From a virus (lineage: Duplodnaviria > Caudoviricetes): a stretch of 64,000 nt of DNA. The stretch lies in the IMG/VR virus record IMGVR_UViG_3300025909_000005, one strand, 5' to 3'. The translations under genes were made by a program, and so were the position numbers. Position 1 is the stretch's first letter. Every line of letters starts with the position of its first letter. A model generated the notes under the pieces. The model worked only from the letters and a program-made list of their open reading frames with translations, was not told the origin of the DNA and did not search any database. Positions 5,901-46,359 of the stretch are shown in pieces.

Positions 5901-6892
5901 AAGCCCGTCATAGAGCCGGCCAGCGTGTACGTCAGGGAGTCGGGATCAAGAACGGTGAGAGTGAACTCCTCAGCGTCAGAGCCACCACCCGTGATGTCTG
6001 TGACAGACGTGTAGGCGTCGGCAACGTCCTTGAAGACGAGCGCACCAGACTCGTAGATCTCCATGTCGCTGAAGTGGCGCAGGGCCAGCGAGGAGGTCAG
6101 CAGCTCAATCTTCTCCTGAACGCCATCACGTGCCTGCACGATGTCAGGGTTTGCAGAGGCGCCCATCCAGGCCAAGAGAGCTTCGTAGCTGGTTGGCAGG
6201 TCAGGAATTGCGATGATAGCGAACAAAGCATCGAGCTCTCGCTGTACGTCTGCATCACCGCCAACGTCAGTCACCACCGTTTGGATGTCGTTCAGGATCT
6301 TCGTGATCTGGCTGATCGCGCTCAGGGGGTTGGTCGTATCGAGCGCAGCGGCTCGTGCAATGTTCGTGGCCTCGGTGATGATGCCATCCTCGTTGGACGG
6401 GATCCACAGAGGATCAAATGGGCTTGACGAGTTGCCGGTGCCTGAGTACGTCTGCTTGATCTGAAACTGGAACGAGCCGTGGCTCTGGAAGAAGTCAACC
6501 GATTCCGTCTGCGGCTCGAGCAGACCAGCCTTCTTCACGAAGACCTGGTTCACGCCAATGGCGTCGAAGCTCTTCTTGGAGTAGACGTATGGGACCGTTG
6601 GCAGGTCGGTGTTCTCGTCCTGTCCCACCGTGAAGGTTCGAGTACGCATGAACGGCGACTGAACGCGGTGTGCAGGGAACGAACGATACAGCGGGTTCGC
6701 GCCAGAGAAGTAGTTGAAGGTCCAGGCAGGGCTGATCTTTGTCTTGATCAGCAGCTTCTCTGTGATCTTGACGTTGACGTCCTCAAAGAACTGGTACTCC
6801 TCAACGATCTCCGTCAACTTGGAGTGGTACGGCTTCGTGTCGTTGATGTAGTCAACAAGACTCTGGACGTAGAGGCTGTTCTTATTTGTCAT
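2921..6892 (-). CDS. Large virion structural protein, probable baseplate wedge/fibre-attachment (1323 aa)
   Basis: Long ORF with phage codon bias. N-terminus SLVDYINDTKPYHSKL, repeated beta modules (GDKFYF, GDVFSF, GDTFTF) and baseplate context. Confidence 0.6.
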   Translation of the reverse strand: MTNKNSLYVQSLVDYINDTKPYHSKLTEIVEEYQFFEDVNVKITEKLLIKTKISPAWTFNYFSGANPLYRSFPAHRVQSPFMRTRTFTVGQDENTDLPTVPYVYSKKSFDAIGVNQVFVKKAGLLEPQTESVDFFQSHGSFQFQIKQTYSGTGNSSSPFDPLWIPSNEDGIITEATNIARAAALDTTNPLSAISQITKILNDIQTVVTDVGGDADVQRELDALFAIIAIPDLPTSYEALLAWMGASANPDIVQARDGVQEKIELLTSSLALRHFSDMEIYESGALVFKDVADAYTSVTDITGGGSDAEEFTLTVLDPDSLTYTLAGSMTGFLAFVTPGTYTSPRVSFTLTSLATPPVGQKLALTPYNKITIGTSALREQWNIIKVNPIAHDRPFYGSSHYGHIQDSSGTVGNIDLLDQTLIGDFVMTATDSTHFSVVGPTYYSVAEVGVPFNDGKLGFTLVGPFQAGDKFYFSIANIPAEVQNLDLGYGYDLDAYDNDHLTYADGTTKINFAYDGRFTDYDLTQLNLTLTQAVQDGRYFRVRALPSTSLITTKKDGTSSDFVDLDDATSGVSPDPASNAAARYGAPELELYLSTTFSVDYSDDNFLTSHHIGNVNVGESFSSSTYGISFDLPAGSKPFIAVTAADTTYPRVEGGDVFSFQVVNPLPTLVERPVGLVAARLPRLIMHSDDFFKAPEAKWTVKFDTTTSYTVSNDKGFYSSGNTIPTPGLIAAEGLSYKNDYVHFTIVPNGGIFAGDTFTFNTFDKKPSYLVHGSVTGWTKPATIGEYYWNDKIGFKLNAPVGQLFDTTNSLRTDLPLTYTIREDCPSLIYTFTKTSSGYLVQRSDINVTGFMPATGTFNDKYLSATSTGLTEDVVHLRVIDHGYQLWNSADMVILNPALPPRLPDAGDLVVVEKSEDGRALISITTSTADTSPLDLINIDPRFISTSTNSDIPLSNTSPETAILNGWLPMTDGRYDSVTSIAEYSDPTTLHVFTTAASGETIGKLQQTDATNVNWPIEFEWDEAFFTKYLPLNAQVNLVTIDNSWNELTRVRIAESLRFLIDGGPLAEDHMFEDDANISVVDTTEWSINQTLVDSFNTTIVDGPFTGFLAGYDNLPYDNETTNGFYDLGQPLTAYFLEAQELMALPSPSPTDSARLADLRDLLGDFLVNGSLSQTTLPDFLAALDADTVLTAQNFGFPEQGSAFDIVDRPSTPVATSITDSMVLLSVDNGNTFGTAGYDTGGLDSQTESTSISFIQSAPTTIDVTLPARIFQVVFTVAPQSTPTFSVLLPVQTVPLQVGAQKLAGSYTYQFSFASPTTLQIIVA

Positions 6893-7226
6893 TCTTTGCT
6901 AGTTTCGCGAGCACGTCATTGTGCTTCTGGATGGCGCGCTCCACAACCTTCAGGTCGTCCTCAAGCTTCATGGCGCGAAGCGTGTTCTTGGTGGTGTCCT
7001 TCTTTGCAAGCAGGGCCAGCTCTGACTTGATGGCCTTCTGGCGGGTCAGCAGAGGAGCAAGCGCCTTGTTCTCGCGATTGGTTACCTTGGCCGCGTGCGT
7101 TGCACGGAACCGGACCTCATCGTCCTTCATGACCTTGTAGCTGTGGCCAAGAGCCGCAGCGCCGAGCACGGTTGCTGCGAGAGTGCTGGCAAACTTGCCT
7201 TCTTCCAGGAGTTCGTTAACTTTCAT
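6882..7226 (-). CDS. Small basic protein with capsid-targeting-like leader (MKVNELLEE), hydrophobic stretch and coiled coil (114 aa)
   Basis: Leader shared with many ORFs in the window. Inserted between two large structural genes. Confidence 0.6.
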   Translation of the reverse strand: MKVNELLEEGKFASTLAATVLGAAALGHSYKVMKDDEVRFRATHAAKVTNRENKALAPLLTRQKAIKSELALLAKKDTTKNTLRAMKLEDDLKVVERAIQKHNDVLAKLAKNDK

Positions 7227-15835: not shown

Positions 15836-17059
15836 TCAGGACTTGACTGGCTCGAAGTTCGCAAGGAACTTCGCATCGCCGACCTCAAACTTGGCGCCCT
15901 TAGTTGTCGCCTTCTTATCGAAGTAGGTGAACGGCTCATCGAATGTAAAGCCAATCCAATAAGAGCTTAGCGAGGATGTTGGGTCGACGTACTTGATCGT
16001 CACGACCTTGCCAATGGCGTTCTCTTTTTCCGTCTTGAAGCCAAGCATGTCATCCACAGGATGGTGTAGGAACACGTCACCTGTGATCTTCCACTTCTGA
16101 CCTACCTTTGGCGCCTCGTCCTTTAGCTTCGAGAGAACGCCCTCAGTAACTGGCTTTGCCTGGCCTCTCATCCACTTTGCGCCATCTTCTTCAAGGTACT
16201 CACCAAGTTTCTCAAGGTTTTCCAGAGAGCCAGTGAACGTTACAAGAGGGTAGCCGTGTTTGTCCCTGCTCGTGTGGTCTACATGAGCTTCGAGATTGTA
16301 CTCACGGGCCAGGCGATTGACGGTCTTTTCGATTCTATCGTGGTCATATCGACCGTAATCTTCTGGTCGTTGATTCGTCTGGAAGTTGAATGGGCTGAAG
16401 TTTCTAGTTTCGAACTTCCACTTGACAACCTTGTCGTAATCCTTCTTAAGGTCCTTTAGACCTTCCTTCACCTTGTTGGCCCGCTTGGCGTGCTTCCTGA
16501 AGTAGCGCTTTGCTGCCTGGGAATCCTCATCATAGTAGACGTACTCAAGTACGTCGATCAGAGCATTGTAGGTTCCCATCAACGTGAAGACGTTGCCGTT
16601 TCGATGAATGGACCGAGCACCCCAGATCTTGAACTCCTCTTCGATGTCATTGAGGTCGTAGGACGTGAAGTCAATGTCCATGAGCCACAGGTCATCATCT
16701 GAGTCGAAGTCCTTGGCCAAGTCCTTGAGCGCTTCCTGCACCTTCTTTTTCTTGACGCGCTTTGCGCCAGACTTGAAGTTGTACTCAGCTTGCCAAGCGC
16801 GTTCACCATCATCCACTACGTGGAGGAGTACGTCCATCAACCGTTCCTTGGTTCCCTCAAGCTCGTACCTGTAGCCATTGTGAGACAGCACAACGACGCC
16901 GCGCTTCTCAATCGCCTTCACGAACTTATCTTCGTTGGCCTTGTGCTTCTCGTCGTCAGCCGTGCGATCGTCATTGATGACAGCGATTCGCCACTTGTCG
17001 GCGTCATCGTAGTCCTTGGCCATGTCCTTCAGACCTTCAAGAAGTTCGGCAACTTTCAT
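15836..17059 (-). CDS. Four-module putative internal head polyprotein (407 aa)
   Basis: Leader MKVAELLE-GLKDMAKDYD recurs internally as VQE-ALKDLAKDFD, VKE-GLKDLKKDYD and VTE-GVLSKLKDE. Confidence 0.65.
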   Translation of the reverse strand: MKVAELLEGLKDMAKDYDDADKWRIAVINDDRTADDEKHKANEDKFVKAIEKRGVVVLSHNGYRYELEGTKERLMDVLLHVVDDGERAWQAEYNFKSGAKRVKKKKVQEALKDLAKDFDSDDDLWLMDIDFTSYDLNDIEEEFKIWGARSIHRNGNVFTLMGTYNALIDVLEYVYYDEDSQAAKRYFRKHAKRANKVKEGLKDLKKDYDKVVKWKFETRNFSPFNFQTNQRPEDYGRYDHDRIEKTVNRLAREYNLEAHVDHTSRDKHGYPLVTFTGSLENLEKLGEYLEEDGAKWMRGQAKPVTEGVLSKLKDEAPKVGQKWKITGDVFLHHPVDDMLGFKTEKENAIGKVVTIKYVDPTSSLSSYWIGFTFDEPFTYFDKKATTKGAKFEVGDAKFLANFEPVKS

Positions 17060-17394
17060 TTGATCAGCTGCTTGTCTGAGGTTACAGGCTTGGCGAATTC
17101 GTCAAAGAACTCCTTGTCTTCACCCCAGTGACGTTCGACCATGTCTAGCAGACGATAGTCCTTACCAACGAAGTGAACAAGCGGATTGCCGCCGCCCGGC
17201 CCAACGAGCTCAATCACCTTGGCCTTCACGCCACAGTCATTTGCAATGATGTCAGCGTCATGCTGCGCTACGCTCATGCTCGAGTTGTCGCTGTTCGCCA
17301 GGTCAAGGTCGATGTACCAAAGATCTCCGTACTTCCTGGCTTCGCTCTCAAGATCCTTGAGCTTACCTTCGAGGAACTGCTTGAACGTGATCAT
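17056..17394 (-). CDS. Small acidic protein with T4-IP-like leader MITFKQFLE (112 aa)
   Basis: Leader resembles the T4 internal-protein capsid-targeting sequence. GPGGGNPLVHFVG motif is shared with the 52876 ORF. Confidence 0.65.
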   Translation of the reverse strand: MITFKQFLEGKLKDLESEARKYGDLWYIDLDLANSDNSSMSVAQHDADIIANDCGVKAKVIELVGPGGGNPLVHFVGKDYRLLDMVERHWGEDKEFFDEFAKPVTSDKQLIK

Positions 17395-20300
17395 TTGGAT
17401 TGCCTGATGACGGTTGAAGTGAGTGCCTCGACGACGTCGATGTCAGAGATCTCTGCAGCAGATTGGAGGATCTCGTCAAAGCCGGCCTCTACGGTGAAGA
17501 GAGAACCGAACGAGTTCGTGGAGTAGACAGGGACTGGCACGACTGCAGCGACGTCTTCAGGCAGGCGCTGGTGAATCAGGGCGATGAGCTTCGTGGCGTA
17601 GAACGTGTCGCCGAAGTCCCAGTTGTCGATGTCGAAGAACGTGTTGATGACGTCGAGAACCTCTTCCTTGATGCGCTCGTCGGTCAGAGTGCCAGTCAGG
17701 GACTTCACAACCTTGAACTTGGCGCGCAGCTGTGGCTCGGCCAGACCACCAAAGAGTAGGCGGATCTTGCCAGAGTGCATGACGACCGTGTCAGAGAGCA
17801 TCTTCTTGCGAAGCAGATCGCCATAGGAGTTGCGCAGCTCGAGCGGAGTTGGAGGTGTCGGTGCGTAGACAGATGTGCCACGGACGTAGTCGATCACGTT
17901 GTTGTAGTAGCCTGAGGTCAGAACGTACGCGTCGTGAATGTTGGTTGGCGTTGGGTCGATGATGTTCGTGAACGGCGTGAAGTGCTGCCACATGAAGTCG
18001 AGACCCGTGTTGCCGCTGTCTAGAGCTGGCATGCGCTGTCGACGACCATAGACGAGTGAGTCATCAACGAAGGCGCCTGCACCCCATGTCATGCCAGCGG
18101 CGGTTGAAGCTGCAATGCCCGTCAGAGTGACAGTCGGGTTCGAGATGAGGAAGTACTCGTAGGACGGTTCAGTGCCACCCGAGAACGTCTCGTACTGCAG
18201 GAGGCGGTCAGGAACGAGGTCACCTGAGTCGTCTTCCTTGAGCAGGTCAGATGGAACGATCTGGAGCTGGTGAACGTCAAGCACACCGTCAGAGTCCTTG
18301 ACAGGACCGACGACGTCGTAGATCTGGTTCTTCTTCAGCTGAATGCCAGCTGAGTTGAAGTTCGAGCCAAGGATCTTGATGTTGTCGTAGACGACGTCCT
18401 TCGTCTCATTGTCTAGAAGCTGATCAACCGTGTTGAACCAGAAGTTCGTGTCCTCAGAACGGATCGTGAGTGCAACCTCGCGGTTGTGAACCTCGTAGCC
18501 GATGATCGTGGAGTTCTGGCGGAGCTTTCGGATGAAGATCACCCAGCTGTAGCGACGAACGGAAGGTGTGAACTTCTGGTCGTGGTACAGGGAGGAGTCA
18601 GGACCGTTGGCGAACTCAGACGTCAGGTCAGCTGCTGAGATGATTTCCCACCAGCCGTTGAGGTTGACGATGTTGTTTGGGTTGCCGTCCGAGAACAGGC
18701 GCTGCGTGACCGAACCATCTGAGTTCGTGTCAAGAATGAACGCGTCACCAGGCTGGAGTGGGTTGGTCGTTGAGGACGTGACGGTGAAGAACTCCTTAGA
18801 GCTCGTCTCACCTGGCAGCAGGATGCTGTACACGTCACCAATGGCACCAGTCGGAAATGAACCACGAAGGTTCGAGCGGACGTAGAGGGAGCCTCCATCT
18901 GCAGCGACCTCGATGGTCCAGACTTCTGCGACCGAGGTCGAGGTTGCTGGGATCGAGCTCGTGAAGCCTGAGACAGGAGTGATCGTGCCGGTACCAATGC
19001 CAGCGAAGTAGCGGTTGTAGCGGAGCGCGAAGTAGTCTTGGTCAGCGATTGGCTGGAGACCCGAGCCGATGTCGCCTGGTGGGAAGCGGTTCACGCCGTC
19101 GATCGTACGTGGCACCGTGGCCGCGTAGATCTTGGAGTCGTCCTTCGGGTTCAGGTCAGGATCCGGAATCTGAGCAAGAACTGTGCCGTCAGCGGCTTGG
19201 ACGTACTGCAGTGGCTCACCGTACCAGTGGCGGTCGATCAGGCCCTGAATGGACGTCTTCTCCTTGAGAGAGCCGTCGCCGATCAAGGTGCCAGTCGCGT
19301 CAGAGTAGATGCCGCCGCGGTTGTCCTCAATGAACTTGCGACGAGGAGCCGACACAACGCCCTGCATTCCAGGCGTGGTGGCCGAGGAGTGGAGCAGCGT
19401 ATTGATGACGCCAGAGGTGCTGAGCAGTGGCTCAATGACTGAGTCGATGAGGGCCTGGCCAGAGACAGAGGTCGTCTGGCTAGACAGAGAAAGCTGGTAC
19501 CGCATCGTGGCATCGTCACCGAAGAGCTTGACGTTCTCGTAGGTTCCAGAGGCGTCGTTCCAGTCGATGTACTTCGGCTGACCTGCAAAGGTGCGGTTGA
19601 TCGTGTTCAGGCGGAGGATCGATGGGTCCTCAAGCAGCAGCGTGTTGTAGTCCTGTCCGTTGACCATGCGGTCTTGGACGTAGAAGCTGCCAGGCATCGA
19701 CTGACGAATATGCTCGATCGTTTCAGTTGCCGAGCCATTCTGCAGGGTCGTCGTCAGGCTGAACGTCATCGAGCAGGACTCGGTGTTGTTCAGCGTGGAG
19801 GTGTACGAGAAGTTGAACGGTACGTTCTGAACCTTGTTCTTCTGGACAACGATCGAGCGGTTCGCCGACTGACGCATCCAGAACCGGAACAGGCCCTGAG
19901 GAATGTCCGAGAAGTCACCGTCACCGAAGATCAAAGTGATCTTGTCATTCTCACCCGTGTCAACTTCAAACTTCTTACGCGTGTTGCGGATCGAGTTGAA
20001 GACGAGGTTCTCAGAGAGCGTGTCAACCTGTGTCCAGCGTTCCGAGATGTTGGAGTTCGAGTCAAGCTTCTGAACCCAGATGTCCGTGTGGTTGACGTTC
20101 GTTGGGTCGAAGTCGAGGCGACGGTCAGGCAGAGCGTCAGCGATGTTGTAGTCGATGCGTGTCAGGGCACCCTGCTTCACGAAGCCAAGGAAGCCGGTGT
20201 AGTCAGAGCCATCACCGATACCGTCGTTCGCGTAGATGATCGAGAGCGGGGAGGTCAGGTCTGGTTCACGCTCGAACGGACCGTTCGAGTCGATATCAGC

Positions 20301-20936
20301 GGGCACGACCTCCATTGGGTAGGAGTCTTGACCGGCCTGAGCCGTGAATGGGAAGACGCCGTTCGTGAAGGAGCCAGAAGTGTTGCGCAGACCGTAGAGG
20401 TCCATGACAACGTCACCAATCTGGAAGGTCTTGGAGGGTTGACCGAAGCGGGTGTTCAGGACGCGGTTCATCACGAGGATGAACTGCTCCTTCCAGTTCG
20501 AGTTGTTCGGGTCGTTCCACTTGATTGTCAGACCAGCCAGGTCGGTGCCACGTGAGTCGACGACGCGTTCGGTGGTCGAGACGGTGTTGAACTTGATCAG
20601 GCCACGAACAGGAATGTTGCGGGTTGGCTTGTACGAGACGAGCTTGGCAAGGCGGAGGATCGACTGCTTACGCTGAGCAGTGGTCACGAAGTTCTCGTGA
20701 GCCATCATGTCGACGCGATAGGCCAGCTGCTCAGCGACGTAGGCGAACGACTCGATCAGGGCAATGAACTCGGACGACTCGATGTAGTCGTTGAAGACCT
20801 CTGGGTAGTAGGTCTTGGTGTAGTCGATCAGCGACTGCTTGATGCTGTCAAAGTCATATGAGACGAAGCTGACCTCGCTGAAGGCCTGGTAGATTCGATC
20901 CCAGGTCTCGGCCGAGTAAGTGGTACGGAGTGCCAT
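17391..20936 (-). CDS. gp6: Baseplate wedge subunit, T4 gp6-like (1181 aa)
   Basis: DFDSIKQSLIDY...NDYIESSEFIALIESFAYVAEQLAYRVDM...ENFVTTAQRKQSILRLAKLVSYKP, ETIEHIR, DRMVNGQDY, and a C-terminal IDNWDFGDTFY motif. Confidence 0.88.
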   Translation of the reverse strand: MALRTTYSAETWDRIYQAFSEVSFVSYDFDSIKQSLIDYTKTYYPEVFNDYIESSEFIALIESFAYVAEQLAYRVDMMAHENFVTTAQRKQSILRLAKLVSYKPTRNIPVRGLIKFNTVSTTERVVDSRGTDLAGLTIKWNDPNNSNWKEQFILVMNRVLNTRFGQPSKTFQIGDVVMDLYGLRNTSGSFTNGVFPFTAQAGQDSYPMEVVPADIDSNGPFEREPDLTSPLSIIYANDGIGDGSDYTGFLGFVKQGALTRIDYNIADALPDRRLDFDPTNVNHTDIWVQKLDSNSNISERWTQVDTLSENLVFNSIRNTRKKFEVDTGENDKITLIFGDGDFSDIPQGLFRFWMRQSANRSIVVQKNKVQNVPFNFSYTSTLNNTESCSMTFSLTTTLQNGSATETIEHIRQSMPGSFYVQDRMVNGQDYNTLLLEDPSILRLNTINRTFAGQPKYIDWNDASGTYENVKLFGDDATMRYQLSLSSQTTSVSGQALIDSVIEPLLSTSGVINTLLHSSATTPGMQGVVSAPRRKFIEDNRGGIYSDATGTLIGDGSLKEKTSIQGLIDRHWYGEPLQYVQAADGTVLAQIPDPDLNPKDDSKIYAATVPRTIDGVNRFPPGDIGSGLQPIADQDYFALRYNRYFAGIGTGTITPVSGFTSSIPATSTSVAEVWTIEVAADGGSLYVRSNLRGSFPTGAIGDVYSILLPGETSSKEFFTVTSSTTNPLQPGDAFILDTNSDGSVTQRLFSDGNPNNIVNLNGWWEIISAADLTSEFANGPDSSLYHDQKFTPSVRRYSWVIFIRKLRQNSTIIGYEVHNREVALTIRSEDTNFWFNTVDQLLDNETKDVVYDNIKILGSNFNSAGIQLKKNQIYDVVGPVKDSDGVLDVHQLQIVPSDLLKEDDSGDLVPDRLLQYETFSGGTEPSYEYFLISNPTVTLTGIAASTAAGMTWGAGAFVDDSLVYGRRQRMPALDSGNTGLDFMWQHFTPFTNIIDPTPTNIHDAYVLTSGYYNNVIDYVRGTSVYAPTPPTPLELRNSYGDLLRKKMLSDTVVMHSGKIRLLFGGLAEPQLRAKFKVVKSLTGTLTDERIKEEVLDVINTFFDIDNWDFGDTFYATKLIALIHQRLPEDVAAVVPVPVYSTNSFGSLFTVEAGFDEILQSAAEISDIDVVEALTSTVIRQSK

Positions 20937-28503: not shown

Positions 28504-29571
28504 ATGAAGGTCACGTCAACGATGGCCGAGTTCAAGAACATCCGAAAGCTGGCGATGTTCACGGACATTCACTTCGGCGCGCGCAACAACTCGGACCAGC
28601 ACAACCTCGACAACCTCGACTTCGTGGACTGGTTCTGCAAGATGGTCAAGGACGAGCAACCGAGTCACATCGCTTTTCTAGGAGACTGGTTTGAGAATCG
28701 GAATCAGATCAACATTCGGACCCTTCACCGTTCGAATGAGGCCTGCAGGCGTCTCAATGCGCTTGGGCTTCCCATTATCTTCATCGTCGGGAATCACGAT
28801 CTCTACCACCGTTCCGATCGCTCAATCTTCTCGACCGACATCTTCAGCAACTTCGAAAACTTCCACCTCATCTCAGAGCCGACGTCCCTCGGTAAGGATT
28901 GGTTTGTGGCACCGTATCTGTTCCGTGCTGAGTATCCAAATCTGGTAGCAGACATCAACACGGCGAAGTACGTGCTCGGTCACTTCGAGTTTCGTGGCTA
29001 CGTTGTGACTGGTGCAGACCGAGTGATGGACCATGGTCCAGATGCAGAGGACTTCAAGGGCCCGAAGTACATCTTCTCTGGTCACTTCCACAAGCGTCAG
29101 GCCAACAAGAACATCATCTACATCGGCAACACGTTCCCAACGAACTACGGCGATGCAGGTGACAAGGAACGTGGCTGCGCCATCTTCGACGTGGAGAAGG
29201 ACGAGATCTGGTTCCACGACTGGGAGGAAGCTCCGCTGTTCTTCAAGACGCGGCTGTCTCGCGTGCTTGGCGGTGAGGCTGACTTTCCACCGCGTTCACG
29301 CGTTCGCTGCGTGATCGACATGGACATCGGCTACTCAGACGTGCAGGCTCTCAAGGAGGAGATGCTCAAGGGCTTCGAGCTCCGTGAATTCTCGGTTGAG
29401 GAGGACATGGCCACTCGTAAGGAGATGATCGCAGAAGGCATGGAGCTGGAAGGTGACCTGGACCTGTCTTCACTTGACAACACAGTGCGCCAGCTGATCA
29501 CCGAAGGTGTGGCCCCATCGGCAACGATCGACCCCACCCACCTGATCAAACTCTATGAGGAGCTCGCATGA
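28504..29571 (+). CDS. gp47: Recombination endonuclease subunit, gp47 (Mre11/SbcD-like) (355 aa)
   Basis: Metallophosphoesterase motifs TDIHFG, LGDWFE, VGNHD, GHFE and SGHFH. Confidence 0.93.
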   Translation: MKVTSTMAEFKNIRKLAMFTDIHFGARNNSDQHNLDNLDFVDWFCKMVKDEQPSHIAFLGDWFENRNQINIRTLHRSNEACRRLNALGLPIIFIVGNHDLYHRSDRSIFSTDIFSNFENFHLISEPTSLGKDWFVAPYLFRAEYPNLVADINTAKYVLGHFEFRGYVVTGADRVMDHGPDAEDFKGPKYIFSGHFHKRQANKNIIYIGNTFPTNYGDAGDKERGCAIFDVEKDEIWFHDWEEAPLFFKTRLSRVLGGEADFPPRSRVRCVIDMDIGYSDVQALKEEMLKGFELREFSVEEDMATRKEMIAEGMELEGDLDLSSLDNTVRQLITEGVAPSATIDPTHLIKLYEELA

Positions 29572-29999
29572 TTCTAAGTTTGACCTACATGGACAGTGAA
29601 CTCAACTCGACGTCTCAGGACCTCCACATCCACTGGAAGTCAAGGTGCCTGGACTACGTTGAGGTGTTGAACACTGAGCTGCACCCAGAGACCTGCAAGT
29701 TTCGTGAGAGCATGTTTGAGACGCAGGCCATTCGACAGGCACGAGGTGAGGACATCGCCGCAGAGGAGCTCGCGACTGAGGACATGTGCCTTCGCGAGTA
29801 CGTCAACTGGAAGCTTGGAAAGCCAGCTGTGATGTATGGCATCGACATGGAGGTTGAGCTTTCCCAGATCTACATGGAGCGGCTCAACGACCGCACATCT
29901 GACAAGGAGCTCATGGCATATGGACGTCGCTTCAAGAACATCCTCAAGCTGATGGTCGCAGAGAAGGAGCACAACATGAGACTGGCAGGTGAGCTGTGA
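29568..29999 (+). CDS. Hypothetical protein (143 aa)
   Basis: Phage codon bias; overlaps both neighbours by 4 nt. Confidence 0.6.
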   Translation: MILSLTYMDSELNSTSQDLHIHWKSRCLDYVEVLNTELHPETCKFRESMFETQAIRQARGEDIAAEELATEDMCLREYVNWKLGKPAVMYGIDMEVELSQIYMERLNDRTSDKELMAYGRRFKNILKLMVAEKEHNMRLAGEL

Positions 30000-30151
30000 A
30001 GATCAAGACGCGTGACAAGCCGATTCAGTCCACGGGCGGCATCAACTTCGTGGCTCCCAAGACGCCGAAGACCTTCGCAGAAAAGGTCAAGGAGTGGCTG
30101 AAGCGGAAGCCAAAGGAAGAAGCAAAGCTTGATTGGGATTCCCTTGACTGA
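29996..30151 (+). CDS. Small basic hypothetical protein (51 aa, GTG start)
   Basis: My translation is MKIKTRDKPIQSTGG...LDWDSLD. GTGA overlap with the upstream stop; fills the gap. Confidence 0.5.
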   Translation: MKIKTRDKPIQSTGGINFVAPKTPKTFAEKVKEWLKRKPKEEAKLDWDSLD

Positions 30152-30167
30152 CGCGTCTGATTACTTC

Positions 30168-30428
30168 ATGAAGCACCGATGGGGCGTGTGCGCAATGTGC
30201 GGACCAGTCGTCATCTGTGGGAAGTGTGGTAACAACTGCTGCAATGGCGGCTACGGCGAGATCTTTGGCCCAGAACCTGGCGTCATGGTGCCGTGTGACA
30301 TGTGTCCCTCGGCCTATGACCTCCAAGACATGGGCAATGAACCAACAGGGGTAGCGGACCAGTTCGTGGAACCGATCCCTCCCCTCAATCCCAGCCGGTA
30401 CTGGGAAGGCAAGAACAGAAAACGATGA
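30168..30428 (+). CDS. Cys-rich putative zinc-binding protein (86 aa)
   Basis: CAMC...CGKCGNNCCNGGYG...CDMC. The start could lie further upstream (TTG 30129). Confidence 0.6.
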   Translation: MKHRWGVCAMCGPVVICGKCGNNCCNGGYGEIFGPEPGVMVPCDMCPSAYDLQDMGNEPTGVADQFVEPIPPLNPSRYWEGKNRKR

Positions 30429-32164
30429 GTACACCTCTTATCTTCAAGACCATCTCAATTCGCAACTTCATGTCCTTCGGCAATGTCGAAAGCACGATCG
30501 AGTTGGATGGTCAAGGCACAGTGACGATCACTGGTGAGAACATGGACAAGGGCGGTTCGAACGGCTCAGGCAAGACGACCATCATCAATGCCCTCTGCTA
30601 CGCGCTCTACAACAAGCCCTTCGACAACATCTCGAAGGAGCGGCTCGTCAACACGACGAACGCGAAGCAGAACACCCTCATGGAAGTTCGTCTCGTCTTT
30701 GAGAAGGACGGCATCGAGTACGAGATCTACCGCGCTCGTGGTGAGGAGTACCGCATCGAGGTTCGCAAGGACGGCGAGGACATCACTCCTGGCAAGGGCG
30801 TCTACGAAACTGATGACATGATCCAAGAGATCATCGGCATCTCGTACGAGCTCTTCACGAAGACAATCATCTTCTCAGGCAACGCACAGCCGTTCCTGCA
30901 GCTTCCGATTCACCAACAGCGGACGCAGATCGAAGAGCTCTTCAACATCACGATGCTCTCTGAGAAGGCGAAGCAGCTCAAGGAGAAGATTCGCGAGACT
31001 GAGGCGAACATCAAGATTGCCGAGGCAGTCGTGAAACAGCAGGAAGTCGCCATCGACCTGCACAAGAAGCACGTGCGAGAAGCACAGCATCGCATCGATC
31101 GTTGGGAAGAGTCTCGTAACGACGAGATTGCCGACATCGAAGCAACCCTTGCCAAGATCGCCACGATTGACTTTGAGGGCGAGCAGGCACTGCACGATGA
31201 GAAGGTCGAGCTTCAGCAGAAGGGCGCGTACCTTGCCGCGAAGCTGGCACCGGCCCGTAAGGACCGAACTATCCTGACAAGTCGCGTCGAAGCTCTCATG
31301 AAGGAGCACGCTCACCTGGCAGACGCGAAGTGCCCGTACTGCTCGCAGCAGTTCGCTGATGCTCCTCACAAGATGATCGGCATCGATGCCGAGCTCGAAG
31401 AGAAGGGTGCGAAGCTGCTTGAAGTAGAGGAGCAGGTTGAGCTGCTTGAGAAGCAGGATGACGTTCGCAAGGAGCGCCTGGCCGAAGTCACGAGCCAGAT
31501 CAAGCACACCGACCTGTCTGAGCTTTCCAAGGCCCGCACGAACTCGTCAGTCCTGCAGACGAAGCTCGAGGAGCTCCGAGTTGCCACGAACCCCCACACC
31601 GAGGCGTATGAGAAGCTGGTCGCTGAGGGCTGCGATGCAGTCGACAACACCAAGGTTGACAAGCTGAAGAAGCGCGCGGATCACCAGTCGTTCCTGCTCA
31701 AGCTCCTGACCGACAAGAGCTCGTTCCTGCGCCGGAAGATCATCAACAAGACGATCCCGTTCCTGAACAACCGTCTCAACCACTACACGAACGCTCTCGG
31801 TCTGCCGCACATCGTGAAGTTCGATGCCGACATGTCCTGCACAGTGGCTGAGTTCGGACGAGAGTTGGACTTCGGTAACCTGTCGGCGGGTGAGAAAAAG
31901 CGCGTGAACACGGCAATGGCCCTGGCCTTTCGAGATGTGCTCCACCACCTGCACGCGAAGACGAACCTGCTGATCATCGATGAATTGGATGGTGCTCTTG
32001 ACCAGCTTGGCATCGACTACATCATCAAGACCCTCAAGGAAAAGTCACGCGATGAGGAGCTTTCAGTCTTCATCATCTCGCATCACCCATCCGTCCAGGG
32101 CCGCCTCGATCGCGATCTAAAGATCAGAAAAGAGAACGGATTTAGTTCTGTCGTTTTCGACTAA
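30425..32164 (+). CDS. gp46: Recombination ATPase subunit, gp46 (Rad50/SbcC-like) (579 aa)
   Basis: RNFMSFGN, Walker A GSNGSGKTT, zinc hook CPYC, signature LSAGEKKR, Walker B LLIIDELDG and H-loop ISHH. Confidence 0.95.
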   Translation: MSTPLIFKTISIRNFMSFGNVESTIELDGQGTVTITGENMDKGGSNGSGKTTIINALCYALYNKPFDNISKERLVNTTNAKQNTLMEVRLVFEKDGIEYEIYRARGEEYRIEVRKDGEDITPGKGVYETDDMIQEIIGISYELFTKTIIFSGNAQPFLQLPIHQQRTQIEELFNITMLSEKAKQLKEKIRETEANIKIAEAVVKQQEVAIDLHKKHVREAQHRIDRWEESRNDEIADIEATLAKIATIDFEGEQALHDEKVELQQKGAYLAAKLAPARKDRTILTSRVEALMKEHAHLADAKCPYCSQQFADAPHKMIGIDAELEEKGAKLLEVEEQVELLEKQDDVRKERLAEVTSQIKHTDLSELSKARTNSSVLQTKLEELRVATNPHTEAYEKLVAEGCDAVDNTKVDKLKKRADHQSFLLKLLTDKSSFLRRKIINKTIPFLNNRLNHYTNALGLPHIVKFDADMSCTVAEFGRELDFGNLSAGEKKRVNTAMALAFRDVLHHLHAKTNLLIIDELDGALDQLGIDYIIKTLKEKSRDEELSVFIISHHPSVQGRLDRDLKIRKENGFSSVVFD

Positions 32165-32958: not shown

Positions 32959-33438
32959 ATGAAACTCTCTGAAATCAAGCTCTTTGAAGAGCCCATCGAA
33001 ACCAAGAACGCGGAAGACGTGTGGGCTGAGGGCGAGGGCGACGCTGCTTCGTACATCACTTCTACAGTCTACTACGTCAAGCCAGCTGCCAAGGCAGGCT
33101 ACTTTGATGTCACGTACGATGATGACAACGATCAACGCAAGACGTACGGCACCATGACCAAGCAGGACTTGGATTCTGCCTTCACGCCTCTGCGTGGCAA
33201 TCAAAAGGCCGACGCGGAGGGCTACCTCCAGTACCGGTCAGGCGACGTCTACGACGCGTTCAAATACCAAGGCGACCCAGTTCGCGTGAACCTCGGCGCT
33301 GCTGGCAAGGACAAGGACATCGTCGTGCTAATGAACAAGGGTGACTACCTGCTTCGCCAGACGTCAGGTGACAACTTCATCTACACCGTCGAGAAGGCCA
33401 ACTACTTCGACAACGGCTACGTAAAGAAGACATCATGA
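32959..33438 (+). CDS. Acidic protein with leader MKLSEIKLFEE (159 aa)
   Basis: Leader motif. C-terminal MNKGDYLL...YTVEKANYFDNGY pattern. Confidence 0.6.
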   Translation: MKLSEIKLFEEPIETKNAEDVWAEGEGDAASYITSTVYYVKPAAKAGYFDVTYDDDNDQRKTYGTMTKQDLDSAFTPLRGNQKADAEGYLQYRSGDVYDAFKYQGDPVRVNLGAAGKDKDIVVLMNKGDYLLRQTSGDNFIYTVEKANYFDNGYVKKTS

Positions 33439-33764
33439 AAATCTCTGAACTCTTAGAAAGCCGCCGTGGTCGTCCGGATCCTGACAACGTCATGATGGCA
33501 AACATGTCGTCTGCACGACTAAAGTGGAAACAATCCGAGAAGCATGGTCCAAAATGGACTTTTATTGATCTTGCTGGTAGGTTTGGCGTCTCAGTGCAAA
33601 ACCTTAAGGCTCTGGTTAGGTCACATCCAGGATTTCCTGAAACAGCAATGAAAACAAGCGGCAACACCACCTCTAATCCCGCGCGCTATTATGATCTTCG
33701 AGATGCGGTGAAGTGGTGGAATTCAATCAAAGATCAAGTTGATCCAAAAATGCTTGAGGATTGA
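33435..33764 (+). CDS. AlpA/excisionase-like winged-HTH DNA-binding protein with leader MKISELLE (109 aa)
   Basis: WTFIDLAGRFGVSVQNLKALVRSHPGFPE...RYYDLRDAVKWW. Confidence 0.65.
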   Translation: MKISELLESRRGRPDPDNVMMANMSSARLKWKQSEKHGPKWTFIDLAGRFGVSVQNLKALVRSHPGFPETAMKTSGNTTSNPARYYDLRDAVKWWNSIKDQVDPKMLED

Positions 33765-33766
33765 AT

Positions 33767-33772
33767 TAAATA
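33767..33772 (+). promoter_or_regulatory. Late promoter core TAAATA
   Basis: Upstream of the resolvase-like gene. Confidence 0.7.
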
Positions 33773-33795
33773 GAGGATCCACAGAAAGGATCCCC

Positions 33796-34359
33796 ATGTC
33801 AGAAGAAAAGACCGTCATCAAGTCCAAGCGCAAGATGCGCCCTGGTGGTGGCAAGGCCAAGGGCAATGGCTTCGAAGGCACGGTCGCCAAGAAGCTCTCG
33901 GCGGCCCTCCCAATCAACTTCATTCGTTCTCCAGGTTCTGGTGCCCGCATCGGTGGCAAGAACTTCGCAACCGTCGGCGCCCTCATGGGCGAAGAGGTCA
34001 TGAAGCTCTTCAACGCAGACGTCGTGCCAATCAACGAGAAGGAAGCGGGCTACACGTTCCGCTACTCCATCGAGTGCAAGTTCTACGCCACGCAGGATCA
34101 CTTCACGTCCCTCGTGGCCCACACAGCAAACGTCTTCAAGTGGTTTGAGGAGTCTGTTGTTGATGCCCAGAAGATTGGTCGAAAGCCGATCCTGATCTTC
34201 AAGTGGAACCATACTCCCATCTTTGTTGCCACCCTCTCAGAGGAAGCGCGCTGGAAGATACCACGGATGGTGATCGGCGAACCATGTGGTCGTATACTTG
34301 ACATCTACGAGCTCGACGACCTTCTCAATGTCCCAGACTTCTGGGTCACCAAAACGTAA
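33796..34359 (+). CDS. Holliday junction resolvase-like PD-(D/E)XK nuclease (187 aa)
   Basis: Start reassigned to ATG 33796 (SD AAGGA). KAKGNGFEGTVAKKL, RSPGSGA, DVVP and SIECKFY motifs. Confidence 0.75.
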   Translation: MSEEKTVIKSKRKMRPGGGKAKGNGFEGTVAKKLSAALPINFIRSPGSGARIGGKNFATVGALMGEEVMKLFNADVVPINEKEAGYTFRYSIECKFYATQDHFTSLVAHTANVFKWFEESVVDAQKIGRKPILIFKWNHTPIFVATLSEEARWKIPRMVIGEPCGRILDIYELDDLLNVPDFWVTKT

Positions 34360-34365
34360 CCTCCC

Positions 34366-34959
34366 ATGACAGATAGCACTCTGCCACGCTGGAGCGTGCG
34401 GCTCGATGCCACGCGCCCCACGACTGGCTTCTCCGACCTTCTTCCGATCGTCAACTCCCACTTCCGCGCCCATGAGGCCGTCGACAAGTTCCTAGGCCCG
34501 TACAACGCGAAGCAGCGCAACTCGCGCTACCCGTATCAACCACCTGATCGTGAGACCCTCCGCCAGCTCGTGAAGCAGGGCGGCATGAACGACTTCTCGT
34601 ATTCAGCGATGCTAAATAGCATCATCCGGTTCTGTGAGCAGCACAAGGGCCTCCGTGCTCCTCCTGCTCCGCACCCATCGACCATCCACTCGATTCAACT
34701 TCCACTCCCAGCCTTTGAGCTGAAGACAAAGAAGCCTGGAGAGACCGAGGTTCACATCATGGGTGCAGACGAACCGCTGATCGTCAAGGGGCTACGGGAC
34801 CCAGACACGGTCAAGTTCATCATCGTCAGACCGAAGTTGAGCCAGCTTGGCACGGCATCGGCAAAGAACTGGGAAATCCTGTTCTACCGCACGCCGCTCG
34901 GCTACATTCCAGACTGGGCGGATTCACATCTCAATCCCCGTTACAGTGGAGTTTTCTGA
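34366..34959 (+). CDS. Hypothetical protein (197 aa)
   Basis: Phage codon bias; no recognised motif. Confidence 0.6.
   Translation: MTDSTLPRWSVRLDATRPTTGFSDLLPIVNSHFRAHEAVDKFLGPYNAKQRNSRYPYQPPDRETLRQLVKQGGMNDFSYSAMLNSIIRFCEQHKGLRAPPAPHPSTIHSIQLPLPAFELKTKKPGETEVHIMGADEPLIVKGLRDPDTVKFIIVRPKLSQLGTASAKNWEILFYRTPLGYIPDWADSHLNPRYSGVF
34613..34618 (+). promoter_or_regulatory. Possible embedded late promoter TAAATA
   Basis: Inside the 197-aa CDS; encoded as CTA AAT. Confidence 0.35.
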
Positions 34960-35206: not shown

Positions 35207-35818
35207 ATGTCACAGACCTTCAAGGAGTTTCTGGCTGAAGCCCGAGACCCGAAGCGTACCTACACCGAGAAATCCGTCAAGGGTGTCGTTGAGCGCGTTA
35301 CCGCTCAGCTCAAGGGGTCCGACTCTGGCAATTGGACGAAGCTTGCACGTCGTTACGCCCGCCTTGAGGCCAGCCTCGTTGCGCTGAAGGAACAGCGCGA
35401 CCGCCTGAACCTGACGCTCAAGGACCAAGTTGCTGACGTCTTCGATCCTGCTGACGTCGTCCTGACCCGTGTGGTTGAGACGGCTCAGTTCACGATCACG
35501 CTGAACAAGCAGACCAAGAAGCCAGACACGACTGAGACTCGCATCGACTTCGAGAAGATTGCTGGTGCCCTTGCTGAGTTGATCAGCGATGACCTGCAGC
35601 CGAAGGTCGATGAGATCGTCAAGCAGTACACGACCGTTGAGGTTGTCCCAGGCAAGACAAATGCAGCTTCGCTGAAGGTCTCCAAGGAAGAGCTCAAGGA
35701 GGCCATGTCCTTTGGTCAGGTCACGGCTTGGGTCAAGCGCATGGTCAAATCGATCACTGACTGGGCTTCGCGCTACGATCGTAAGCTTGATGGACTTCGT
35801 GCACGGGCCGGCAAGTGA
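35207..35818 (+). CDS. Coiled-coil putative internal head protein with leader MSQTFKEFLAE (203 aa)
   Basis: Closest match in the window to the T4 internal-protein targeting sequence. Late promoter and SD upstream. Confidence 0.7.
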   Translation: MSQTFKEFLAEARDPKRTYTEKSVKGVVERVTAQLKGSDSGNWTKLARRYARLEASLVALKEQRDRLNLTLKDQVADVFDPADVVLTRVVETAQFTITLNKQTKKPDTTETRIDFEKIAGALAELISDDLQPKVDEIVKQYTTVEVVPGKTNAASLKVSKEELKEAMSFGQVTAWVKRMVKSITDWASRYDRKLDGLRARAGK

Positions 35819-36210
35819 TCACCTTCAAGCAGTTTCTCGAGGCTGACCTCTCAAAGCTGGCCAAGGACGTCGACAGTGAGAAGGGAAACCTCAAGCTCAC
35901 GTACGATGAGTTTCGCCAGTTTCAAGACGTCATCCCCTTCGTAGAGAAACCGGACAGCTGGGATCACATCGACGAGCATACGGTTCCAAGGTCGACGATC
36001 GAGAAGATTGAGAAGTCACTGGGCTTCAAGCTTGAGACCTTCACCGTGAAGGAGCTGTTCGGTAAGTCAAGCTTGCCAAATGGTCCGCTGGCTGATGCGC
36101 ATTGGCCTGAGAATACCTACATGGGCATCCTCGAAACAGACCGTGGCTCCTACATCTTCAACACTACAGGCGCTCGCTCGTACGTTCGTTTCTGGGCAAA
36201 GATCAAATGA
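35815..36210 (+). CDS. Putative internal head protein, leader MITFKQFLE-ADLSKLAKD (131 aa, GTG start)
   Basis: The first 9 aa are identical to those of the 17394 ORF. Confidence 0.65.
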   Translation: MITFKQFLEADLSKLAKDVDSEKGNLKLTYDEFRQFQDVIPFVEKPDSWDHIDEHTVPRSTIEKIEKSLGFKLETFTVKELFGKSSLPNGPLADAHWPENTYMGILETDRGSYIFNTTGARSYVRFWAKIK

Positions 36211-36608
36211 AGCTCGGCCAACTCCACGAAGCGAGTGCGCTGTCACGAATCAAGGACAGTGTGCCTCATGATACGGTAGTTGCGCATCAGACATTCTGGG
36301 CAACGGCGCGCGCCGACTACATGAACCTGCTTGTCAAGATGATTGAGAGTGCCGGCTTTACAGATGCAGAGTCTGACTTCAAAGACGATGCAGCAACCTT
36401 CAGCGGTGATACCATCGAAGCCAAGCTGCATGGTACGTATCCCGTTTATTTCCATCTCTCAGAGTCAGGTGCAAGTTTTGTTGAGGTAGAAGCAGTCCTG
36501 TTTGGTGGTGAACACGTGTTCAGACAGAGGAATGTCAAGGACCTGAAGAAGTGCTTCGCTGAAATCGAGAGCTATGCTCGAGTGAATGGACCCGACGAGG
36601 ACGACTGA
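36207..36608 (+). CDS. Putative internal head protein, leader MKLGQLHE-ASALSRIKD (133 aa)
   Basis: Leader parallels the 46559 ORF (MKLRELHE-SALSNMK). Confidence 0.6.
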   Translation: MKLGQLHEASALSRIKDSVPHDTVVAHQTFWATARADYMNLLVKMIESAGFTDAESDFKDDAATFSGDTIEAKLHGTYPVYFHLSESGASFVEVEAVLFGGEHVFRQRNVKDLKKCFAEIESYARVNGPDEDD

Positions 36609-37294: not shown

Positions 37295-37301
37295 ATCGGT
37301 G

Positions 37302-37622: not shown

Positions 37623-38857
37623 TTTACAAGGTCTCCTCGACCAAGCAGCTGCACTTCTCTGATCCGCTCCATGTGGGGCGGTTCTACCCACATGCGCAGC
37701 GTGTGCACCAAGGGAAGATGCAGGAACGCCAAGACCTGATCCTCTACCTCGCGAGCATTCACGAGGCGGCGATCAAGTCTGGCATGCCTCGTGGTTTCTG
37801 TCGGATTCCGATGCGGCTCACGAGTCTGAAGGAATGGGTGCACGACTACAAGGGTGCGTTCAATCACTTCTTCACGATCGTCGAGTCAGGCTACCACATC
37901 GGCGATGATTGGCAGTACAGCGTCATCATCCCGAACGAGCTGCCACGGGATCCTGACTTCGAGCACACCGAGCGGAAACTCGTGTACGTTCCACCTCCAG
38001 TCCCCGCTCAGGGTGTCGTGTCGAAGGTGTTCGTGCAGGTGCAGAAGAAGGAGCCCATCCTCAAGAAGCTGGCCACGAACAACCGCCTGGACCTCTACGC
38101 TCCAGTCGAGTGGCTCCTGTCCCAGCCAACCAACGAGTTCAACTTCTACTTCATCCCATCTGGGAAGCTGCAGATGCGGGATACCTCGATCTGGCCAATC
38201 GCGGCCATCGAGACCTGGCCCTCGTGGCTGCGTGAGGATCTCTTTGGCCCTGGCATTGACATCGAGGCCGCGTACACCCAGTTCCTGATCGAGGGAGTTC
38301 GCAAGGCATACGAGAAGGAACCGGACATGGTTCGGATTCTCTACCCAGACCTGCTGCGTTCACTCGAGGACAAGACGCAGTGGCGCCGAGAGATCTGTGA
38401 AGATGTGCTCGGCATGGAGTGGAATGACCACAGCGTGGGCGTGGTGAAGAAGATCTGCATGAGCCTGGCCAACGGTTCAAAGATCTCACCTGGGATCCTG
38501 CTCTCGGAGATGGGTCACTCAATGACTCGCAACATTATCCTCGAAGAGTCGGCAGACGTGACTGCAAGCAAACTGATCCACATCGGTCAACGGCTCCTCA
38601 CCATTTCACGACAGTACTCCGCAGCAAAGAAGGTGGTGTGCAGGTGGGAGCTCGGCTTGGCACCAACCAGGGCCAACCAGAAGAAGGTCTTCGCTGGCTA
38701 CTTCGAGTGGGAACGTGAGGCGCGCTACAAGATCTGGGAAAGTGTTGGGAGACACGGGATCATGGTGCACGATGGGATCGACGGCATTCCTGAAGAGGAG
38801 CTCAGCCGAATCCCTGAGATCATTTCGAGCTTGAACTTGAAGCTGACCCGCTCTTAG
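37619..38857 (+). CDS. Compact family-A/T7-RNAP-superfamily polymerase-like protein (412 aa)
   Basis: SGKLQ...WLREDLF...GIDIEAAYTQFL (motif A), VVKKICMSLANG (motif B) and IMVHDGID (motif C), in the canonical order. Confidence 0.55.
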   Translation: MIYKVSSTKQLHFSDPLHVGRFYPHAQRVHQGKMQERQDLILYLASIHEAAIKSGMPRGFCRIPMRLTSLKEWVHDYKGAFNHFFTIVESGYHIGDDWQYSVIIPNELPRDPDFEHTERKLVYVPPPVPAQGVVSKVFVQVQKKEPILKKLATNNRLDLYAPVEWLLSQPTNEFNFYFIPSGKLQMRDTSIWPIAAIETWPSWLREDLFGPGIDIEAAYTQFLIEGVRKAYEKEPDMVRILYPDLLRSLEDKTQWRREICEDVLGMEWNDHSVGVVKKICMSLANGSKISPGILLSEMGHSMTRNIILEESADVTASKLIHIGQRLLTISRQYSAAKKVVCRWELGLAPTRANQKKVFAGYFEWEREARYKIWESVGRHGIMVHDGIDGIPEEELSRIPEIISSLNLKLTRS

Positions 38858-39215
38858 ACGGGAAGATCATCACGAAGCGGTACCGGTCGGAGTGCGTGAA
38901 CTTCTGACCGGTTACCTTCACGTCTGAGTTCTGCTTCTTGATGAGATCGAGGTACTGCTTCATGCGCACGTCGGCGATCGGCGGGCTCTTTGGCGTGATT
39001 AGAGTTACCACAGCCTCGTAGTGAAACTTGTCAGGGCTACGAGGATCCTCAACCTTGACCCTCACATAGGACTGGAATGACAAACCCTTAATCTGCCTTG
39101 CGAGCATGCGAAGGGTGTACTCGGCCTTGTGCGGGTCTGACAGTGACGTGGTGACGTCATCGTAGTGGCCCTTAAGCTTGTCAAGGGCTTCGAGGAATTG
39201 GCGGAAGGTTTGCAT
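38820..39215 (-). CDS. Putative internal head protein, leader MQTFRQFLE-ALDKLKGHYD (131 aa)
   Basis: Leader motif. TAAATA 6 nt upstream of the ATG. 3' end overlaps the convergent gene. Confidence 0.65.
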   Translation of the reverse strand: MQTFRQFLEALDKLKGHYDDVTTSLSDPHKAEYTLRMLARQIKGLSFQSYVRVKVEDPRSPDKFHYEAVVTLITPKSPPIADVRMKQYLDLIKKQNSDVKVTGQKFTHSDRYRFVMIFPSKSGSASSSSSK

Positions 39216-45738: not shown

Positions 45739-46359
45739 ATGAAGTCCATCCTCCTCGTTGAAGACCTGACCCCAGTTCAGACCGCTCTTCGCGAACAACG
45801 TACCGCCTCTGGCGAGCTCTTCCTGAACGGCATCATGATGCAGTCTGAGCTCAAGAACGGCAACGGCCGTGTCTACCCATTGGCTGAGATCTCCCGTGCG
45901 GTGGACGAAGCTGCAAAGCGAATCGCCGAAGGCAACCCGATCATGGGCGAGCTGAACCACCCTGACGTTCTCTCGATCAACCTGGACCGCGTCTCGCACA
46001 TCATCACCGAGGTCCGCATGGACGGCAACAACGCCATCGGCAAGATGAAGCTCCTGAACACCCCAACTGGCCAGATCGCCCGCGGTCTGATCGAAGGTGG
46101 TGCACGTCTAGGTGTCTCTTCCCGTGGTACCGGCAACGTGAACGAATCTGGCGCGGTCTCTGACTTTGCCTTCGTAACTGTCGACATCGTTTCCCAGCCA
46201 TCGGCACCTGACGCCTACCCGAACGTGGTTCGTGAGGCCATGGAGAACAAGAAGATCCTGAGCCTGGCAGAAGCCGTCGTTCACGATCCGAAGGCACAGG
46301 CCTACTTCAAGAAGGAAATGTCCCTGTTCCTCGAGGCCATCACCAAGGGTAAGAAGTGA
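45739..46359 (+). CDS. gp21: Prohead protease, T4 gp21-like (206 aa)
   Basis: GIMMQSELKNGNGRVYP, GELNHP...INLDRVSHII, LGVSSRGTG and TVDIVSQPSAPDAY. Confidence 0.95.
   Translation: MKSILLVEDLTPVQTALREQRTASGELFLNGIMMQSELKNGNGRVYPLAEISRAVDEAAKRIAEGNPIMGELNHPDVLSINLDRVSHIITEVRMDGNNAIGKMKLLNTPTGQIARGLIEGGARLGVSSRGTGNVNESGAVSDFAFVTVDIVSQPSAPDAYPNVVREAMENKKILSLAEAVVHDPKAQAYFKKEMSLFLEAITKGKK

Follow-up and report, generated by a model that had tools for sequence, protein, structure and literature searches.

A jumbo phage reading frame very probably built by fusion of leader-tagged module genes, and its possible role as head cargo

The internal proteins of phage T4, which are tagged with a capsid-targeting sequence (CTS), form an injected anti-restriction arsenal, and the T-even phages possess IPI, IPII and IPIII as well as more than 30 internal protein (IP) variants, which are processed by gp21. 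To our knowledge, CTS-tagged internal proteins are only known as single-unit proteins. Here, we describe an open reading frame (ORF), P0001 (15836..17059, minus strand), in a stretch of 64,000 nt, referred to as the window, from the IMG/VR virus record IMGVR_UViG_3300025909_000005 (Caudoviricetes). Within a single chain of 407 aa (47.3 kDa), P0001 joins one complete CTS-like leader to three modules that are paralogues of each other and to a distinct domain at the C-terminus. We are highly confident that P0001 is a fusion of leader-tagged module genes, and the repeated leader-derived motif at its joints has very probably mediated recombination. The fuller proposal, that the whole chain is a fusion of internal-protein-like head cargo genes, which is packaged and also cut internally, is a serious possibility, if not quite the expected outcome.

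In the T4 internal protein system, only the leader is common to the members, the loci are hypervariable, and Ip1-3 specifically inhibit GmrSD enzymes (PMC3012670, PMC2839356, PMC12373910), with each of them blocking a different one (PMC12373910). The T4 CTS reads MKTYQEFIAE (PMC8442874); its residues 4 and 7 are used for targeting and residues 8 and 10 for processing, gp21 cuts after L/I-x-E, and an Asp residue at the P1 position stops processing but not targeting (PMC9026906). This system is the closest known kind to the one described here. As in the T4 IPs, the P0001 leader is around 10 residues long, is aromatic or aliphatic at residues 4 and 7 and ends in aliphatic-x-Glu. In both cases a leader is common to small accessory proteins of one phage that are otherwise unrelated, and both phages combine a gp21-type protease and a gp23-type capsid protein with loci that are hypervariable between close relatives. 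Unlike the T4 IPs, P0001 has several putative cargo units in one frame with partial leader remnants at the joints, and the element shared within its family extends around 12 residues past the putative cut. The T4 IPs are small and highly basic, and the putative P0001 products fit in size but are not highly basic; P0001 has no sequence similarity to any T4 IP and no recognisable domain. In addition, the host genome of P0001 differs from T4 in being that of a soil jumbo phage of approximately 377 kb from the RsoM2USA/XacN1 lineage. The closest multi-domain analogues are the polyvalent packaged proteins (Iyer et al. 2017, PMC5512222), which are, like P0001, multi-domain accessory proteins encoded among late virion genes and are predicted to be packaged and injected. 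Their domains are duplicated and shuffled between relatives, as seen for P0001, and a domain-separating processing has been proposed for some of them (PMC5512222). However, polyvalent proteins combine recognisable enzymatic or effector domains and often bring their own peptidase, whereas P0001 has no match to a Pfam or PHROG family or to a structure and contains no protease domain, and would hence rely on cuts by the prohead protease at sites derived from the leader. Families of paralogous head-internal proteins, as proposed here, are also known among the head and ejection proteins of phiKZ/SPN3US-like giant phages. In these phages, a gp21-related protease cuts after Glu (A/S/G-x-E), sometimes at several sites per chain; those multiple cuts fragment long propeptides that are discarded, whereas the cuts in P0001 would separate folded domains that are retained.

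The P0001 reading frame, translated from the minus strand, on which all of its parts are encoded, is free of stop codons across the 407 aa. Its CTS-like leader, MKVAELLE (residues 1-8, 17036..17059), ends in a putative gp21 site after E8 (L-L-E|G) and is followed by motif copy 1, GLKDMAKDYDDADKW (residues 9-23, 16991..17035), the first junction being LLE|GLKDMAKDYDDADKW (residues 6-23). Junction 2, VQE|ALKDLAKDFDSDDDLW, spans residues 107-125 (16685..16741) and junction 3, VKE|GLKDLKKDYDKVVKW, residues 197-214 (16418..16471); the latter is the same in the orthologue P0003 and reads VGE|GLGD in the metagenome locus L004. Junction 4, VTE|GVLSKLKDE (residues 304-315, 16115..16150), is a weaker copy, with a degenerate motif but an intact V-x-E|G. 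All four junctions consist of [L/V]-x-E|[G/A] and a following LKDLAKDYD-like helix. Within P0001, the pattern [LIV]-x-E-[GA] is found only at these four sites (residues 6-9, 107-110, 197-200 and 304-307), compared with approximately 1.1 sites expected from the window proteome, although the four are copies of the repeated motif and are not independent in this comparison. At the DNA level, a 32-nt unit occurs three times, at 17007-17038, which includes the first 29 nt of motif copy 1 (17007-17035), at 16704-16735 and at 16434-16465, with 84% and 69% identity to the reference copy. An earlier reading of the sequence only, made without database searches, had proposed these four junctions and a similarity between them that is visible in the DNA, and both proposals were confirmed, with all junctions found at the claimed positions. 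The P3 valines of junctions 2 and 3, V107 (16739-16741) and V197 (16469-16471), are encoded by GTG codons and are conceivable internal starts; no Shine-Dalgarno-like sequence was found before these two GTGs, and a sigma-70 promoter and terminator scan of the P0001 locus yielded nothing above shuffled sequences.

Each junction is followed by one module. Module 1 (M1, residues 1-105, 16745..17059), which has a ferredoxin-like alpha+beta core, shares 36% identity over 95 aa with module 2 (M2, residues 106-195, 16475..16744; pairwise E 1e-9), and leave-one-out profiles from which the motif had been removed still recovered M1 (E 2.5e-4) and M2 (E 9e-5). Module 3 (M3, residues 196-302, 16154..16474), which contains a long insertion, was not significantly recovered by such a motif-free profile (E 0.23). 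It matches the other modules by hhalign in the C-terminal strand-helix alone (E 1.3e-3, 26 columns), and the order of its predicted secondary-structure elements in the full-length model is the same as in the other modules. By these comparisons, M1 and M2 are clear paralogues and M3 is a diverged paralogue; we describe all three as ferredoxin-like modules of roughly 90-107 aa. Module 4 (M4, residues 303-407, 15839..16153) is a different, beta-rich and possibly SH3-like domain. The sequence-only reading had described modules 1-3 as paralogous and the fourth as SH3-like. The first part holds and the likeness extends past the motif, with M3 being much diverged. As for M4, its distinct and beta-rich nature is borne out, but an SH3-like fold is only a tentative assignment: an Atlas model of residues 311-407 reached template modelling (TM) scores of 0.5-0.64 against barrels of the SH3_13, DUF1653 and FeThRed_A type, the predicted local distance difference test (pLDDT) value of M4 in the P0001 AlphaFold model is around 28, and no Pfam match was found for it. 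The same full-length model has a low mean pLDDT of 54.5. It does not show a single integrated fold with buried repeats, an outcome that the sequence-only reading had named as refuting its proposal, but three separate beta-alpha-beta-beta-alpha-alpha cores (pLDDT 65-86) and three motif helices with values below 50. A model of a single module, M2 (residues 100-200, based on an alignment of ten sequences), had a pLDDT of 75.6, with 75-88 in the core and 55-59 in the motif helix, which is separated from the core by a loop with values below 50; with 7-10 sequences, the alignments used for these folds are very shallow. When PDB Foldseek, BFVD and VIA-align wide were searched with the module model, they returned only generic matches of the ferredoxin-like, ACT or RRM type, the best of which (Z 6.1) is within the stated noise range of the tool and thus gives no functional lead. 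The four putative products have masses of 10.7-12.7 kDa and isoelectric points of 4.8-8.1. In comparison with the orthologue, the ratio of synonymous to non-synonymous changed codons is 9:4 in M2 and 9:1 in M3. M4, which evolves fastest within the gene and diverges much faster than M2 and M3, has 53 of 84 codons changed (29 synonymous and 24 non-synonymous), suggesting diversifying pressure or a recombination boundary. An origin of M1 as a recent duplicate of M2 was considered and rejected, as orthologues share 87% identity against only 36% for M1 and M2.

The N-terminal leader of P0001 is in wide use in this phage. The pattern M-x(4-7)-[LF][LHAV]-E heads 11 of the 66 crudely called ORFs of the window, compared with 0.61 expected from internal positions (P = 2.6e-11), which agrees with the targeting leader assumed in the earlier reading. 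ORFs 35815..36210 (MITFKQFLE|A) and 38820..39215 (MQTFRQFLE|A) have only the first 21 or so residues in common with the P0001 family, including LE[GA]L.KLAK.YD, and their bodies are unrelated to it according to hhalign. Because unrelated bodies carry these residues, the leader and its continuation do not belong to the module fold but form an N-terminal cassette that is portable. We propose that such a cassette of about 20 residues heads many unrelated small proteins of this jumbo T4-like myovirus lineage. It would consist of a leader of 8-10 residues (MK..ELLE or M.TFKQFL.E), to which an amphipathic [GA]LKDLAKDYD..W stretch is added in some proteins. Both of the above ORFs are part of a cluster of small genes on both strands at 33435-39576, just upstream of the head genes, each of which carries a CTS-like leader; to this cluster also belong the ORFs 33435..33764 (MKISELLE|S), 35207..35818 (MSQTFKEFLAE|A, the closest in the cluster to the T4 CTS) and 36207..36608 (MKLGQLHE|A), and the region looks like an internal-protein-type locus. 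Two further leader-bearing ORFs, MKFTDLLE|A and MKLRELHE|S, adjoin the prohead protease gene. Separately, ORF 60410-61540 (plus strand, 376 aa) starts with MKINELFD|Q, which is leader-like but has Asp in place of Glu, and contains an internal duplication, with two stretches matching phrog_16075.

Several lines of evidence indicate how P0001 came about. Directly upstream of it lies P0002 (17056..17394, minus strand), a free-standing single-module paralogue of 112 aa that starts with MITFKQFLE|GKLKDL and ends in AKPVT... A module profile run against 1.84 billion representatives retrieved five proteins, namely the P0001 orthologue P0003 and four free-standing proteins of 102-113 aa. In the free-standing members of the family, the motif lies right behind the start (M..FKQFLE|GLKDLAK or MKFKDFLNE|S) and the tails are of the AKPVT type. 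In P0001, the corresponding tails (AKRV.., AKRAN.. and AKPVT) lead straight into the E|[GA]LKD of the next module. Since the other family members stand alone and carry the motif at their N-terminus, P0001 can be read as formerly separate genes joined in frame, a reading that we hold with high confidence. With each fusion, a stop codon would have been lost together with the first six or seven codons of the leader that followed, and each join would have kept the aliphatic P3 residue, the P1 Glu, a small P1' residue and the continuation helix. The family is otherwise sparsely represented: tblastn with P0001 and megablast with the locus against 50,697 annotated phage records gave no match, no relative of the P0001 locus was found in an IMG/VR scan, a metagenome scan with a single protein retrieved only L009 and L010, and P0002 had one marginal PHROG hit. 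We also considered that the fusion is a sequencing error, and rejected this as M2-M3-M4 are also found fused in independent metagenome contigs, where the fusion is under purifying selection. Beyond these proteins, residues 124-175 of the 202-aa ORF 52876-53484 (plus strand) are weakly similar to the body of the modules (hhalign E 7e-5; hmmsearch E 0.002-0.004), and this ORF may be a distant extra member of the family that lacks a leader.

The repeated motif is also the point at which related loci differ. Four metagenome loci (L002 and L003, which are identical, L009 and L004) are without exactly module 1, that is 303 nt, with the crossover inside the motif, and retain M2-M3-M4. L002 tracks the M1 copy of the window up to ...GGACATGGCCAAG and then the M2 copy, and the two alignments overlap by the 32-nt repeat at an offset of 303 nt. 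As M1 and M2 are only 36% identical, this difference does not stem from a recent duplication, and on these alignments it arose through the motif, either by deletion or by insertion of DNA from a diverged donor; taken as a natural deletion, motif copy 1 would be its 5' partner and junction 2 its 3' partner. A second kind of exchange is seen in L004 (positions 483-824, corresponding to 17056-17394 of the window), where a diverged allele, P0005, stands in place of the upstream single-module gene. Within the replaced gene the DNA identity is only 47-57%, compared with 92-97% in the gp6 flank, and it rises again at the conserved 3' tail. The boundaries of this cassette swap are thus the conserved leader and the conserved AKPVT tail. 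We have little doubt that motif-mediated recombination has occurred, and the DNA of the repeated motif probably serves as a homology patch for the loss, gain or swap of modules. The sequence-only reading had anticipated such a recombination handle and had suggested comparing module numbers between related loci; the absence of module 1 from four loci and the swap in L004 agree well with it.

A link between the leader and the virion comes from the Ralstonia phage RsoM2USA, which is among the nearest cultured relatives based on the gp6 homologue (42% identity), together with XacN1, PA5oct and Rak2-like phages. A degenerate DNA pattern for TFK[QE]F matched four RsoM2USA genes, always at the start of the ORF, and two of these are ORF89 (MKTFKQFLSE...) and ORF132 (MKTFKQFLNT...). 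Both proteins are among the ten abundant virion proteins detected by liquid chromatography-tandem mass spectrometry in a study in which cleavage was not reported (PMC8504454). The probability of at least two of the four leader genes being in the abundant virion set by chance is 0.002 (hypergeometric test). Runs of adjacent leader-bearing genes are present in the RsoM2USA genome (MG752970.1) at 64.9-67.7 kb, with ORF87 (MKLSE), ORF88 (MKLHE), ORF89 and ORF90 (MSFKTFLE), and at 164.3-166.2 kb, with ORF254 (MTTFKEYLLE), ORF255 (MNQTFKQFLTE) and ORF256 (MKFSDYILE), which indicates that a tagged arsenal is common to the lineage. The candidate processing enzyme of the phage described here is a gp21-type prohead protease (Peptidase_S77, E 3e-26; 45739..46359, plus strand), whose own N-terminus reads MKSILLVE|D.

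We propose that P0001 is translated late, coupled to the baseplate genes, and that its single complete leader carries the 47-kDa chain into the prohead core, where the gp21-type protease would take off the leader after LLE8. The protease would probably also cut after VQE109, VKE199 and VTE306, giving four proteins to be ejected with the DNA, as the sequence-only reading had supposed for a release by gp21; their role, accessory or anti-defence as for T4 Ip1-3, is suggested by analogy only. We consider the packaging of P0001 into the virion or head with N-terminal trimming to be likely, and internal cleavage into four products to be nearly evenly poised, leaning slightly towards no cleavage. In its most far-reaching form, which we consider possible but less likely than not, this reading is that of a cargo polyprotein: one leader would load independently folding modules, the protease would separate them at leader-derived sites, resulting in fixed 1:1:1:1 doses of the injected proteins, and the same leader-derived sequence would, as DNA, provide the homology patch. 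The cleavage site and the recombination site would then coincide in a single element, comparable at the protein level to a cassette array. In agreement with internal cleavage, the internal junctions have lost the targeting pair of the CTS and kept the equivalents of its processing pair (aliphatic P3 and Glu P1), V-x-E|G persists where its surroundings drift, as seen in VGE|GLGD of L004 and in front of the degenerate motif of M4, and the putative cut sites lie at the start of inter-domain segments with low pLDDT (below 50 to 59).

A number of observations weigh against internal cleavage and the polyprotein. At P3, all three internal sites carry Val, a residue that none of the leaders seen has there, those of the window having L or F and those of RsoM2USA L or I; T4 gp21 requires L or I at P3 (PMC9026906), and the T4 internal proteins are cut only once (PMC8442874). 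Common descent alone would likewise lead one to expect that E|G and the helix are kept, junctions 2 and 3 may both be copied from a single ancestral junction and would then not be independent, and the low pLDDT of the motif helices is weak evidence for flexibility, given how shallow the alignments are. Furthermore, the modules are neutral to acidic (isoelectric points of 4.8-7.0), in contrast to the basic T4 IPs. Part of this evidence speaks for a multidomain cargo that is packaged, trimmed once at LLE8|G and otherwise left as a 46-kDa chain of beads on a string, in which the internal motifs are relics of the fusions or N-terminal helices of the modules. The free-standing homologues show the motif to be inherited with each module, and multidomain polyvalent proteins that are packaged by phages exist, for which packaging without processing is possible (PMC5512222). 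Such an uncleaved cargo does not readily account for a V-x-E|G that outlasts the neighbouring motif in M4 and L004, nor for the placement of the sites at the start of low-confidence segments. In addition, the P3 preference differs among gp21-family proteases, being L/I in T4, A in SPN3US and S/A/G in phiKZ (PMC5694885), and the enzyme of this phage might therefore accept Val. On balance, we regard an uncleaved packaged cargo of this kind as rather unlikely, though it deserves to be kept in mind.

The genomic position of P0001 raises a different objection to a role in the head, since P0001 and P0002 are located between the gp6 homologue (17391..20936) and a gp7-like protein of 2,847 aa and not in the head gene block. 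ATGA overlaps couple P0002 to the gp6 homologue and to P0001, and a second leader-bearing gene of this block (6882..7226, minus strand, 114 aa, MKVNELLE|E) directly follows the giant gp7-like gene. One might speculate that the two small genes encode structural or assembly add-ons of the baseplate made together with gp6 and gp7, with the modules acting as decoration or adaptors and the leader not directing proteins to the head. In RsoM2USA, however, the orthologues of the gp6 homologue and the 2,847-aa protein adjoin each other without a small pair between them, from which we conclude that P0001 and P0002 were inserted into the baseplate block. Near-identical phages differ in how many modules they have, and the family homologue P0007 is encoded among the nrd and EndoIV genes of a T4-like phage and not among tail genes. 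The same leader is present on the prohead protease and the ORFs beside it. As the cargo genes of the T4-like Alt family, which encode head proteins, are also found next to baseplate genes (PMC5512222), the position is not strong counter-evidence, and we consider a baseplate function improbable. It is more improbable still that P0001 is a cytoplasmic protein absent from the virion, whose N-terminus is a helix, or a feature of translation initiation, common to a set of paralogous genes and whose modules act in the infected cell; in another version of this view, the GTG codons of V107 and V197 would be internal starts that yield separate module proteins. The generic ferredoxin-like fold without an informative match would be compatible with this, as would the use of GTG at both positions. 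However, the leader is common to proteins with unrelated bodies and is similar to the T4 CTS at those positions whose function has been mapped (PMC9026906), the virions of RsoM2USA contain two leader-bearing proteins in abundance (PMC8504454), and the internal GTG codons lack a Shine-Dalgarno-like sequence.

If the cargo polyprotein reading is correct, phages would have, in the concatenated CTS-tagged form, a new means of enlarging and dosing the cargo that they inject, the CTS system would reach into the soil jumbo phages of the RsoM2USA/XacN1 lineage, and a single tag that loads several proteins into a capsid might be available as a natural design. For the evolution of gene content, the natural 303-nt indel of a module, which has its crossover within the tag-derived motif, is direct evidence of the influence of such tags. 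Should the internal sites remain uncut, the finding would be a more modest one, a family of tandemly fused paralogues with a leader of a known kind.

The contig on which the P0001 record lies comprises 376,619 bp, and the window is derived from a jumbo myovirus. Besides the prohead protease, the window encodes a portal protein, a coiled-coil scaffold-like protein and a Gp23-type capsid protein (Gp23, E 4.5e-86). In the capsid protein (49025-50293, plus strand), LLE|G (residues 14-16), LME|N (29-31) and IFE|T (36-38) precede the Gp23 domain, which starts around residue 50, and the propeptide therefore probably has several protease sites. The portal protein (43532-45268, plus strand) ends in a long low-complexity tail that is first Gly/Glu-rich and then Pro/Ala-rich (GGGGGGGGGE...APAPAPA). 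Between the portal and prohead protease genes lies a gene for a GNAT acetyltransferase (45265-45702, plus strand; Pfam Acetyltransf_1, E 1.7e-13), and SbcD-like and SbcC-like nuclease subunits (PHROG 100 and 77) are encoded at 28504-32164 on the plus strand, between the baseplate and head regions.

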